A stretch of 64,000 bases of DNA from NCBI GenBank assembly GCA_965207735.1, contig OZ242296.1, forward strand, positions 1,024,001 to 1,088,000, read 5' to 3'. This stretch comes from Candidatus Versatilivorator sp. (GTDB taxonomy: Bacteria > Acidobacteriota > Terriglobia > Versatilivoradales > Versatilivoraceae). The notes beneath the pieces were generated by a model. That model was not told the origin of the DNA and did not search any database. It saw only the letters and a list, made by a program, of their open reading frames with translations. This document shows, piece by piece, positions 8,002 through 14,568 of this stretch. Each line of letters opens with the position of its first letter. The stretch's first letter is position 1. The translations under genes were made by a program, and so were the position numbers.

Positions 8002-8451
8002 TCAGGAGGTGGGCCTGAAATAGAGAACCATGGCGGCGCCAACGGCTACCAGGACAAACCCAAGATAAAGCAATGGATTAGGGGCCATCTTGGGAGGATG
8101 AAGCAATACCGAGCCCAGGACGTTCACCAGCGGCGCCCCGCCAAAAACCAGGGGCATGACGTACAGGGGCTTCCCTCCGGACTTGAACGCCCAGATGATA
8201 CAGATGGCGCCGGTCGCTCCCAGGCAACCGGCAATGATGGCCGTGAGGGTTCCGGCGGCGGTGAACCCCTGGAATCCTCCCTTGGACCACATGGTCACTG
8301 AAGGCACCAGGACGGCAATCAGAAAGTAGGCAAAACCGACACAGAGGAGTGCGCGAAGCGGACTGGCCAGCTGGGCCTGTCCGCGGTGCAAGGTGACGCC
8401 GTACATGCCCCAGGCCAGTACCGCTCCGCATACAAAGATAAGCCAGTTCAT
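8002..8451 (-). CDS. Small multi-TM membrane protein (EamA/DMT-like)
   Basis: MNWLIFVCGAVLAWGMYG...YVMPLVFGGAPLVN; about 5 hydrophobic helices; start overlaps the upstream stop. Confidence 0.7.
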   Translation of the reverse strand: MNWLIFVCGAVLAWGMYGVTLHRGQAQLASPLRALLCVGFAYFLIAVLVPSVTMWSKGGFQGFTAAGTLTAIIAGCLGATGAICIIWAFKSGGKPLYVMPLVFGGAPLVNVLGSVLLHPPKMAPNPLLYLGFVLVAVGAAMVLYFRPTS

Positions 8452-10003
8452 TATTGTCGTCTTCCTTTCCTGTCGTTCAAGAGCCGCTCCGGGGGACGGT
8501 GCTCGCCGAAGCAGTAGAGATACTCCCGAGTCCGAATGTAGAGCCTGCCCTCGGAGATGGCCGGTGTCGCGCTGCATTCGCTCCCGAGGTCGTTCACCGA
8601 CAACACCTGCCAGTCGGCTCCCGCCCGAATGACACTCACCTTCCCTTCGTGGCTGACGGCGAAGATCTTATCATCCCCCGCCACCGGCGAAGCGTAGTAA
8701 GTTCCCAGGGCCTCCCGGATGCGATCCTGCTTGAGCACGCTTCCGTTGGAGGGGTCCAGGGCCGTCAATATTCCACCCTCCTTCATCAGATAGAGGATGC
8801 CCTTGTAGAGCAGCGGCGAAGGCACATTGGGCAACGACCGTTGATATCTCCACAGCAGATTGCTTGCGGTCATGTCCCCCTTCCCCCCCAGACGGACTCC
8901 CAAGGCCCCGTTGCGGGCCGATCGCTTGGCCCGGTAAATCCGCCAATCCCGATCCTCCAGGAAGCCGGTGCGATCCAGGTCCAGCCGGCCAAAGTCCCAC
9001 CTGAAACGCAAGCCGGCCAATTCCTGTTGGGAAAGGCGCTTATCTCCATCCGCATCCCGCTCGGACAGGACATCGGCAAAGGCCGCCACCTCCTCCTGAT
9101 GGCCGTCGTCGGCTCCCCCGGCCCATCCATTCAGGTAGAGCAGGTCCCGGTTGATGACGGGCGTTGATTTCATCTGCCAGGTCAAGCCGCGCAACCACCA
9201 GATCTCCTCTCCGCTCTCCACCGAGTAGGCTGTCAATTGATGGGACCCCGAGACCAGCACCTGCAGCTCTTCCCCCTTCGGTCGGTAGAGCACCGGAGTG
9301 GAAAATCCTCGGGTAAAGCCGGGGCGTTCCACCCGCCACAGGACCTGCCCCGACACTTGATCCACCGCCACAAAAAACGATCCGCTTTCCTGGTCGCAGA
9401 TCAACAGAACCCTCCCGTCGGCCAGAATGGGAGATGCGGCCTGACCCATGGGTTGATGAAAGGCCCCAGGGGCAAGCGCCAGCGCTCCCGACCTTCCGCG
9501 TCGAAGGAAATCAGGCCGAAATCGCTGAAGAAGACGTATACGTTGCTACCGTCGGTCACCGGAGTGGGAGAGGCGGGGCCGTTGGCTCGATGCATCACCT
9601 CGGCCCGGGGCCGCGGAACTTCCCTCTTCCACCGGAGCTCGCCACTGGATCGGTCCAGGCAGAGGACCCATAGCCGCTTCCCCTCCATGGCCGACAGAAA
9701 GATGCGGTCACGCGTCAGCACGGGTGAAGAGCGACCGGGTGCGGTCGAAGCGCGCCACACCAGGTTCCGGTGAGGACCGAACCGCACCGGCAGCGAGGAG
9801 GTCTCCATGACTCCGGTGGCGTTCCATCCCCGAAACTGGGACCACTCCGCGGCCGCGATACGCGGGACGAGGTAACCCAGACACAGGAACAGCACCACCC
9901 AGACGCCGCACCTGCAGGCTCGACCCGGGCTGGAACCCAAGCGCCCTCCAAATAGACCCGGCCGGCCGGCGCCCCTCACGCCGATCCCTGTTTGCATGCC
10001 CAT
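8451..10003 (-). pseudogene. PQQ-binding-like (BamB-type) beta-propeller protein split by a frameshift near 9450
   Basis: The 5' ORF (WSQFRG, SSPV, SPTPVTDG) and 3' ORF (ASPILADG, FSTPV, VPSPL, YASPV, ATPAI) join as NPMGQAASP if one C is added to AACCCATG; start uncertain. Confidence 0.8.
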
Positions 10004-10055
10004 GGCAGTCCTCCACCTCAAGAAAGGCCTCACTTCGATTTCCATTGGCGACTTG

Positions 10056-13233: not shown

Positions 13234-13236
13234 CGG

Positions 13237-14568
13237 TCAGCTATAGCGGCTGCCTCGATGGCGACTCAGGAAAAAGTCGGGAAGAAAACTGTCCACCTGC
13301 AGCAGCCCCTCACGGCTGAGCCTGAGGCTGTTGTCCCCAGCCTCCAGGTAGTTCCGTTGCTGCAGACTTTGCAGGGGAGAAGCGAATCGCTGCCGGATAT
13401 CGGTATCGAACTTCTCTCGAAAGTAGCTGGGCCGGACCGTCCCCAACTTGAACTGCAGGATCAATTCGCGGATGAGACGCTCCTCCCGGCTGGGCGTCAG
13501 CGCCCGGAAGATGGGAAGCCGACCCTCCTCCAGGCTTTTCCGGTACCCCGGCAGGTCATGCTCGTTCTGGTAATGGGTGCCGTTGACATGGGAAAAAGAG
13601 GCCACACCCAGTCCAACCAGGTCGGCGCCGGTCCAGAGCAGGTCACGGTAGAGGAAGCGGGTGCGATCCGGGTCCTTGACCGCCGTGTAGGCGCTGCTCA
13701 CGGAGTAGCCGCCTCGCTCCAGCAGCGAAAAGGCTTCGTCCACCCAGCCTCGCTTGGTTCCCCAATCGGCCACCGGCGCCACCTTCTTGCCTGCGGCCTT
13801 CATCTCCTGGAATACGGTGGTGTTGTAAGGGATCTCCATCTGGTAGATGGTCACGCTGTCGGGCTCCATCTCCAGGGTGCGCTGCACGCAGTCGCGCCAG
13901 TTTCCTTCCGTTTCACCCACCATCCCCGCGATCAGGTCAATGTTGACTTGCGGGAATCCCACTGACCGGGCAATCCGGTAGGCTCGGTCGATCTCCCGAG
14001 AACCATGGGCACGGCCGTTGGTCTCGAGGATCGTGTCGTTGAAATTCTCGATCCCCAGGCTGAGCCGGGTCACGCCGATATCCCGAATCACCCGTAGCTT
14101 GTGTTCCGTCAGGGTCCCCGGCTCGCATTCGAAGGTGATCTCTTCGGCCGCATCCCAAGAGAGCAGCTTTTTCAGCCGGTCTGCGAGCCGCACCAGTTGG
14201 GTTGAGGAAATGTAGGAGGGGGTGCCGCCACCGAAATAGATGAAGAGCGGTTTACGGGCGCCGACAAATGGCTGTCCCGCGTAGAGTCTCAACTCTTCGG
14301 CCAGCGCGGCCAGATACCGCTCCACTGCCGGGGCGTCCTGTTGGGTATACACCTTGAAATAACAGAAATGGCAGCGCTTGCGGCAAAAAGGAATGTGCAG
14401 GTAAAAGCCCAGGGGGGTGCCGGGGACAGGCGGCCGTTGAAGGGCGGCTGCAGCCTCGCCCACCCGATCCGGCTTCCAGAAGGAGTAGGGAGGATAGTTG
14501 GAAACGAAGTAGTTGCCCGCGGTCGTACGGTCACTGCTCCGCTGGGGAGAAGAGCTGTCCGAGTTCAT
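13237..14568 (-). CDS. HemN-like (class C) radical SAM enzyme
   Basis: YLHIPFCRKRCHFCYF (CxxxCxxC), YFGGGTPS, RLSLGIENF, NIDLIAG; GAGG RBS before ATG 14568. Confidence 0.88.
   Translation of the reverse strand: MNSDSSSPQRSSDRTTAGNYFVSNYPPYSFWKPDRVGEAAAALQRPPVPGTPLGFYLHIPFCRKRCHFCYFKVYTQQDAPAVERYLAALAEELRLYAGQPFVGARKPLFIYFGGGTPSYISSTQLVRLADRLKKLLSWDAAEEITFECEPGTLTEHKLRVIRDIGVTRLSLGIENFNDTILETNGRAHGSREIDRAYRIARSVGFPQVNIDLIAGMVGETEGNWRDCVQRTLEMEPDSVTIYQMEIPYNTTVFQEMKAAGKKVAPVADWGTKRGWVDEAFSLLERGGYSVSSAYTAVKDPDRTRFLYRDLLWTGADLVGLGVASFSHVNGTHYQNEHDLPGYRKSLEEGRLPIFRALTPSREERLIRELILQFKLGTVRPSYFREKFDTDIRQRFASPLQSLQQRNYLEAGDNSLRLSREGLLQVDSFLPDFFLSRHRGSRYS

Follow-up and report, generated by a model that had tools for sequence, protein, structure and literature searches.

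Dispersed genes around a HemN-like radical SAM enzyme and a halogenase-like flavoprotein form a conserved pathway in Acidobacteriota and four other phyla

The 64,000-nucleotide stretch of Candidatus Versatilivorator sp. DNA analysed here (contig OZ242296.1, positions 1,024,001 to 1,088,000; hereafter the window) is part of a closed 5.26 Mb genome, designated G000, and carries a six-gene operon that encodes a HemN-like enzyme of the radical S-adenosylmethionine (SAM) type together with a flavoprotein related to flavin-dependent halogenases. This operon is a fragment of a larger, dispersed pathway. Our tentative reading, held at somewhat less than an even chance, is that the pathway starts from a 4-hydroxybenzoate-type acid and ends with the glycoside of an aryl alcohol, halogenated and C1-modified, that is exported to the cell envelope. 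The operon and its candidate promoter are as follows:

14614..14641, minus strand: candidate sigma-70 promoter with an extended -10 element
13237..14568, minus strand: radical SAM enzyme, HemN-like (class C type), from an uncharacterised family (CxxxCxxC, GGGTP)
11935..13233, minus strand: flavin-dependent halogenase-like enzyme, PltA/CndH/Mpy16 type by PDB matches and motifs, putatively halogenating
11495..11938, minus strand: hotdog-fold (4HBT/YbgC-like) thioesterase (Pfam 4HBT_2 above cut-off)
10056..11378, minus strand: PaaK-like acid-coenzyme A (CoA)/adenylating ligase, start codon uncertain, an optional part (PDB 4r1l, E 1.5e-47)
about 8451..10117, minus strand: secreted WPxWRGP-type eight-bladed beta-propeller, one of 21 paralogues (Pfam PQQ_2 on both halves)
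8002..8451, minus strand: EamA-like membrane protein with five hydrophobic segments, predicted as five helices

The six genes are confirmed as real and, as an earlier note made from the letters of the window had described, all run in one direction, from 14568 to 8002, with short gaps or overlaps (3, -4, 116, -62 and -1 nt). Conserved synteny, the check which that note had proposed, is found and spans records from Acidobacteriota, Verrucomicrobiota, Planctomycetota, Armatimonadota and Lentisphaeria. In the best 80 radical SAM loci, many of them on short contigs so that all counts are lower bounds, the flavoprotein is present in 68, the thioesterase in 53, the ligase in 45, the membrane protein in 22 and a sodium:solute symporter (SSF) in 12. 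These loci also carry genes that the operon lacks, namely those for a chorismate-lyase-like protein (59), the propeller PQ6 (40), a GT4 glycosyltransferase (33), an iron-containing alcohol dehydrogenase (Fe-ADH; 14), an FtsX-type permease (10), an aldehyde-dehydrogenase-like protein (8) and an EhpF-like protein (7). Every missing partner is found once in G000, scattered over five or more places, and the counterparts of PQ6, Fe-ADH and the SSF/DUF3311 pair fall inside the window, beyond the operon, whose fragmentary nature the earlier note had missed. The dispersed partners are:

22903..24836, plus strand: DUF3311 small protein and SSF symporter, assigned by Pfam; a recurrent importer, present in the operons of receptor-type genomes
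28653..29759, minus strand: PQ6 propeller, best genome match, with invariant GSxD and GCD; conserved partner of the GT4/MacB-FtsX module
29837..31198, minus strand: Fe-ADH, true start probably downstream of the listed start
G000 C1:2316470-2317003: chorismate-lyase-like gene (DUF98/UbiC fold)
G000 C1:1832766-1835352: adjacent genes for an EhpF-like adenylating enzyme and an aldehyde-dehydrogenase-like reductase
G000 C1:1885867-1891663: MacB/double-FtsX ATP-binding cassette (ABC) exporter
L098:6867-8180: GT4 glycosyltransferase of G000

The radical SAM enzyme has the CxxxCxxC and GGGTP motifs and a HemN_C domain, which place it among the HemN-like class C enzymes, and it matches NocN at E 3.9e-26. 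It is nevertheless neither HemN nor HemW, as the earlier note had supposed. It scores below every NCBIfam cut-off (HemN, TIGR00538, 180 of 325 bits; HemW, TIGR00539, 160 of 205 bits), the RNFQGY segment of 1OLT is absent, SLGIE replaces SLGVQ, and there is no HNxxYW, given as a HemW motif in PMC13495026. The other paralogue in the genome has both HNxxYW and SLGVQ, scores 266 bits and is HemW. A HemN-like fold and motifs are shared with NosN/NocN, C10P, Jaw5, ChuW and presumably MenK, and such class C enzymes have SAM methylene radical chemistry in common (PMC10114718), but identity to those compared by sequence is about 30% or less, the family has motifs of its own (SLGIE and YRDxLW; 110 sequences aligned), and the operon has no partner methyltransferase and no heme or menaquinone genes nearby. 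The partner methyltransferase that marks C10P/C10Q-type cyclopropanases is not among the recurrent locus families. At least 8000 relatives score E<=1e-30 among the candidates scored; other HemN-like proteins may be counted among them. G163:C146 (L124), G090:C14 and G173:C271 each hold a further copy of the gene that is more distant (42-44%), and the one in G163 has as neighbours a second flavoprotein gene and one more gene of radical SAM-like type.

Sources annotate these relatives as coproporphyrinogen III oxidase, and G000 lacks both HemF and any further HemN, as expected if the enzyme were HemN and its neighbours unrelated. We regard this as extremely improbable. G000 has HemY, ferrochelatase and a ChdC-like protein, a heme route that needs no HemN; its HemW is a separate protein, the HemN motif is absent from the enzyme, and the gene co-occurs tightly with genes that have no role in heme synthesis. 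There are no heme genes near the operon, as the earlier note had stated. The AhbD route was also considered for G000 and rejected (best match 98 of 500 bits).

In the flavoprotein, GGGPAG (at 26), FPKK (at 84), WFWYIP (at 231) and FLDPVFSSG (at 314) conform to the halogenase signatures GxGxxG, the Lys in FPxK, WxWxIP and FxDPxFSxG; the first, the third and a suitably placed Lys had been noticed before. This Lys, K87, is presumably the catalytic halogenase Lys and, with WFWxIP and FxDP, is kept in at least 95% of 96 family sequences. Structures 8zop, 5buk, 3e1t and 5dbj are matched at E 1e-50 to 4e-58, and the best structural relatives are the carrier-dependent halogenases PltA, Mpy16, CndH, ChlB4 and CmlS, which share the Lys, WxWxIP and FxDPxFSxG. 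Membership of the geranylgeranyl reductases, which would have overturned the original assignment, is rejected (TIGR02032, 120 of 159 bits; PDB 3oz2 at E 9e-16 against 4e-58 for halogenases). CmlS is also the best NCBIfam match, but at 182 bits against a cut-off of 900, and, different from the PltA and CmlS types, there is no nonribosomal peptide synthetase, polyketide synthase (PKS) or carrier protein here. On these motifs and matches, the flavoprotein is likely to halogenate.

The EhpF-like protein matches the EhpF structure at E 1.3e-38, and the adjacent reductase keeps the catalytic Cys of aldehyde dehydrogenases and has HGPG in place of the hydrolytic Glu motif, as do reductive members of that family (PMC12041015). 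Adjacent AMP-binding and aldehyde-dehydrogenase-like genes also encode GriC/GriD (grixazone), which reduce an aryl acid (PMC10179220), and EhpF/EhpG (griseoluteic acid; table in PMC11278526). The pair in G000, which lies outside the window, differs from both in that there are no aminohydroxybenzoate or phenazine genes and in that its partners are genes for Fe-ADH, GT4, an exporter and the halogenase-like and radical SAM enzymes. In the GT4 family, a CGxC motif, possibly a metal site, is conserved in the N-terminal part beside the usual EX7E.

The chorismate-lyase-like protein has a predicted DUF98/UbiC/UTRA fold (pLDDT 94) with 2nwi as top match and UbiC (1g1b) lower, and 2nwi is the only match in a profile search. 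M47, R75, G91, P114 and E175 are invariant, and all but P114 may fit UbiC active-site positions. In bmp and in baaA/baaB of Planctomycetales 10988, the latter linked to 3,5-dibromo-p-anisic acid (10.1101/723874), a chorismate lyase also adjoins a flavoprotein for which halogenation of 4-hydroxybenzoate has been proposed. That source describes BaaB as Bmp5-like, mentions no radical SAM enzyme and makes the assignment without a genetic test; the flavoprotein here is PltA/CndH-like, a distinction from BaaB by description.

Co-occurrence was evaluated in a single sample of 151 Acidobacteriota genomes that includes G000. The radical SAM enzyme is present in 36 and the flavoprotein, at E<=1e-100, in 35, all of them radical-SAM-positive; at E<=1e-60 the latter number is 40, and the five weaker genomes, one of which is G062, were set aside. 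The EhpF-like protein occurs in 41 genomes, 40 of them with strong matches (E<=1e-86) and G064 with a weak one; the 40 include all 36 with the radical SAM enzyme, and GT4 occurs in the same 40 plus G123. These 40 are designated core genomes, leaving 111 others. Acid-reduction and glycosylation genes are thus tied more tightly to the radical SAM gene than is the ligase, found in 18 genomes. A siderophore-type TonB receptor is present in 28 genomes, 26 of them strong: 21 of the 25 lyase-negative and 4 of the 11 lyase-positive radical SAM genomes, plus G139 (Fisher 0.008, overstated since kin are not independent). The receptor takes the slot of the lyase, in the order radical SAM - receptor - flavoprotein; G000 has none. 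Four radical SAM genomes have neither lyase nor receptor, and in three of these another TonB-type protein lies beside the pair. The genes fall into layers, first GT4/ABC/FtsX/PQ6, then EhpF-like/reductase/ADH, then radical SAM/flavoprotein/thioesterase, and last lyase/ligase or receptor, and there are genomes with only the first one or two.

From these families, motifs, linkages and co-occurrences we infer the substrate, the order of steps, the halogenation, the one-carbon addition, the glycosylation and the hand-over to PQ6 as follows. The acid would be made by the chorismate-lyase-like protein or, as such or as a later intermediate, imported by the TonB receptor and SSF symporter. The PaaK-like ligase would convert it to a thioester that the flavoenzyme would halogenate (or hydroxylate) and to which the radical SAM enzyme would add a one-carbon unit via a SAM methylene radical, and the thioesterase would then free the acid. 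The EhpF-like enzyme with the non-hydrolytic aldehyde-dehydrogenase-like reductase, and Fe-ADH, would reduce the acid to the alcohol, the CxxC-bearing GT4 would glycosylate it, and the MacB/double-FtsX ABC exporter would hand the product to the periplasmic propeller PQ6 and its paralogues. The earlier proposal of an acid that is imported and then activated with CoA stands in part: the acid may instead be made in-house, and the ligase is optional. The genes are strongly conserved, occur as single copies and have outlasted their dispersal to at least five loci, features that suggest an envelope compound with a housekeeping-like role and not an antibiotic.

Several observations weigh against this aryl glycoside reading. 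The flavoprotein also matches the non-halogenases QhpG, LodB and GoxB (134, 98 and 77 bits), and for this reason halogenation is graded no higher than likely. The closest halogenases use carrier-tethered substrates, and a simple motif scan of loci L016-L142 found no carrier protein and no small open reading frame resembling an acyl carrier protein (ACP); a GcvH-like protein occurs only in the optional terpene module described below. No flavin reductase or methyltransferase is recurrent in the loci examined. UTRA ligand-binding domains share the lyase fold and outrank UbiC. Only 11 of the 36 radical SAM genomes have the lyase (11 of the 151 in all) and only 14 have the ligase, so a CoA thioester that this ligase produces cannot serve as substrate in all of them. 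G218, G200 and G123 have the GT4/exporter module but none of the aromatic enzymes, and its acceptor therefore need not be aromatic. Substrate, product and activities are all read here from genes.

The flavoprotein's CmlS match, cited above, also bears on a different substrate, a long acyl chain that would be alpha-chlorinated, methylated or cyclopropanated in the chain, esterified with 4-hydroxybenzoate, reduced at the carboxyl and glycosylated to an outer-membrane glycolipid. A planctomycete compound, alichondrichlorin, contains a 2-chloro-3-hydroxy C26 acid with a 25-O-(4-hydroxybenzoate) ester, the biosynthesis of which is given as unknown (PMC11848864), the two folds of the EhpF-like enzyme and its reductase are also those with which LuxE/LuxC reduce fatty acids (PMC12041015), and the GT4/exporter module is also found beside a terpene cyclase, which suggests lipophilic acceptors. 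However, genes for chain building and for an ACP are absent from the loci, the PDB search with the adenylating enzyme returned EhpF and not LuxE, and the PKSs of G000 are not linked to the pathway, so that we consider a lipid unlikely. A linked PKS of the polyunsaturated fatty acid type was sought and none was seen, the two G000 PKS loci being unrelated. These are type I loci, at C1:4607026-4617312 and C1:2112001-2125326, the latter of which also holds genes for a radical SAM enzyme and a reductase. They resemble the sup and swf clusters of sponge symbionts.

Importers (SSF, major facilitator superfamily, TonB receptor), a CoA ligase, a thioesterase and dehydrogenases are common in catabolism, and the genes could serve to import and degrade or detoxify an external aromatic compound. 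The chorismate-lyase-like gene, class C radical SAM enzyme, GT4 and exporter point rather to synthesis, the aldehyde-dehydrogenase-like protein has no hydrolytic Glu, and no ring-cleavage genes recur in the loci; a degradative role is very unlikely.

The terpene module is represented in G000 by an operon at C1:816186-828481 (L191:4186-16550) with genes for desulfurase-like, GcvH-like and CobW-like proteins, a ferredoxin, a radical SAM enzyme, a DUF116-polyprenyl synthase, a single-domain toroid and a squalene-hopene cyclase (SHC)-like cyclase. The GcvH-like protein has a conserved Lys in an EGFKA-like motif, and an insertion-like element separates the toroid and cyclase genes. By domain content, length and taxa rather than by a tree, the cyclase fits an SHC-like clade of PVC, FCB and Acidobacteriota bacteria that is reported to be uncharacterised (PMC12324236, PMC7306690). 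In 26 propeller-centred loci, an SHC-like cyclase is present in 9, DUF116-polyprenyl synthase in 7, PQ6 in 9, FtsX in 10 and GT4 in 6. Loci L184-L187, L189, L179 and L161 combine terpene genes with those for a ferredoxin, a Fer4_5 membrane protein, a membrane-anchored propeller, NuoEF-like and GltD-like proteins and PQ6-ABC-FtsX; the ferredoxin pair is reminiscent of NapGH/MauMN.

G000 carries both the aromatic and the terpene modules, and the two are neighbours in G192 and G085. On one contig of G192, the terpene operon is continued by PQ15-PQ13-SSF-EhpF-ADH as far as the contig end, and a different contig begins with the rest of the ADH gene, followed by PQ6-radical SAM-lyase-flavoprotein-GT4-thioesterase-ligase-ABC; the split gene suggests that the two contigs adjoin, although there is no overlap between their ends (L280 and L085). 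The cyclase of G085 has EhpF-ALDH as its immediate neighbours. Merosterol logic likewise combines 4-hydroxybenzoate, halogenation and acid reduction. With MstE, which cyclises a dihydroxybenzoate-bearing C20 chain (PMC12324236), as precedent, both modules could form one pathway to a cyclised meroterpenoid glycoside. We consider this quite unlikely, as no UbiA-type prenyltransferase is recurrent in the loci, and here, in contrast to the MstE pathway, the cyclase is an optional partner. It is present in only 4 of 13 hand-picked core-positive Acidobacteriota, and an obligate link, failing in the other nine, is rejected. In 80 metagenome cyclase loci, PQ6 was found in 7, GT4 in 6, ABC/FtsX in 4 and a weak lyase match in 1, with the HemN-like enzyme, flavoprotein, EhpF, ligase and thioesterase in none.

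Propellers, with a dispersed paralogue as query and E<=1e-25 as threshold, are present in 42 of the 151 genomes, all 40 core genomes and 2 of the 111 others (G123 and G131). The control family DUF1501 is found in 26 core genomes and 30 others, including G062, and was rejected as a client family because its profile does not follow the pathway. The 21 propeller paralogues of G000 nearly all have signal-like N-termini; the genome also encodes six to seven longer quinoprotein-like propellers and has about 55 DUF1501 matches. These distributions and the exchange of lyase for receptor are consistent with a product that serves as a redox cofactor or ligand of multi-copy secreted propellers, made by some lineages and imported by others, comparable to the clients of PQQ or mycofactocin. 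Also in favour, in the verrucomicrobial phylum of G188, 14 to 15 of 26 loci combine membrane-anchored propellers with genes for a ferredoxin, a Fer4_5 membrane protein and NuoEF-like proteins. However, among 201 genomes of this second phylum, 23 have propellers and 4 the EhpF-like protein, with an overlap of 3. In four propeller-rich genomes, GT4 is present in three and a radical SAM orthologue in none, G389 having six propellers and neither enzyme. G193 has the whole cluster and no propeller match at threshold, and G189 has no matches although its locus holds propellers. Strict dependence of propellers on the aromatic branch therefore fails in this phylum. Conserved propeller residues are mostly structural W, G and P, the closest fold is BamB, with quinoproteins ranking lower, and PQ6 scores 99 of 480 bits with TIGR03075; membership of the PQQ quinoproteins is rejected on these grounds. 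Such a cofactor role is doubtful but, as it concerns the use of the product, can hold together with an aryl glycoside.

A predicted complex of PQ6 with the first periplasmic domain of the permease scores 0.34 (best control 0.00), with runs that agree in at least 80% of contacts and a partner pLDDT of at least 89, and weakly supports a possible interaction. Of 157 solved pairs 116 reach this mark, as do 2 of 215 mismatched ones; with a score no higher than 0.60, however, it is reached by only 18 of the 157 solved pairs and by both mismatches.

A wider proposal, which we put forward as a minority possibility, is that PVC bacteria, Acidobacteriota and Armatimonadota share a hidden pathway, housekeeping-like and with up to about 25 genes, the product of which would be exported and glycosylated and would serve their large family of periplasmic propellers as a new redox cofactor or lipid ligand. 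A fixed delivery module, GT4/MacB-FtsX/PQ6, would be fed by interchangeable front ends, aromatic (halogenase-radical SAM) and SHC-like terpene, and communities would divide into makers, with chorismate lyase, and importers, with the TonB receptor.

Within the operon, the propeller gene is broken into two frames, 9401-10117 and 8451-9449. As contigs of all four sequencing runs (two from one sample, possibly the DNA source) have one extra base behind 9449 and the gene is in frame in three aligned relatives, this frameshift is an assembly error. Two EF-hand-like segments in a propeller loop (8940-9060) are not seen in the query paralogue. T19, D20, G23, H26 and E35 of the thioesterase are conserved in 72 sequences, the ligase has further PDB matches of AjiA1/NatL2 type, and the EamA-like protein has Atlas matches at 0.99 (unnamed or putative EamA) and 0.96 (EamA in 27% of members). 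The candidate promoter (14641-14614) that the earlier note placed before the operon is, alone, at chance level (one of 5 matches, 2.6 +/- 1.8 in shuffles), but four of five close relatives retain its extended -10 within 113 nt of the start. Two transporters flank the operon:

14715..18293, minus strand: TAXI-TRAP importer, a non-conserved neighbour only (above NCBIfam cut-offs)
4547..7809, minus strand: three-gene ABC-2 exporter, a non-conserved neighbour only

Both are present, upstream and downstream, where first described, but TAXI, TRAP and ABC-2 permeases occur in only 5 of the 80 loci, those of the closest relatives, and are not parts of the pathway to which they had been assigned. The conserved exporter is the MacB/FtsX-type ABC elsewhere in G000, and the conserved importers are the SSF/DUF3311 pair and, in other lineages, the TonB receptor. 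Other features among or next to the scattered pathway genes of the window are a transposase (25418-26785), an aromatic-amino-acid-decarboxylase-like gene (19048-20466; 1 of 80 loci), a second Fe-ADH-family gene (27140-28492) and a gamma-glutamyltransferase (31202-32884).

A search of the open-access literature returned no description of this gene combination and no product, and the case for the newness of the pathway is this search together with the failed membership tests; a known product is no part of it. About a quarter of the sampled Acidobacteriota (36 to 40 of 151) carry the pathway, which also occurs in four other phyla, and despite this spread the key enzyme goes under the name of a heme enzyme. 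The gene set bears on the role of a large HemN-like family, on the ligands of BamB/PQQ-like propellers and on the destination of the SHC-like cyclase product. If the halogenation is true, organohalogens of soil, sediment and sponges would have a widespread source in this pathway.

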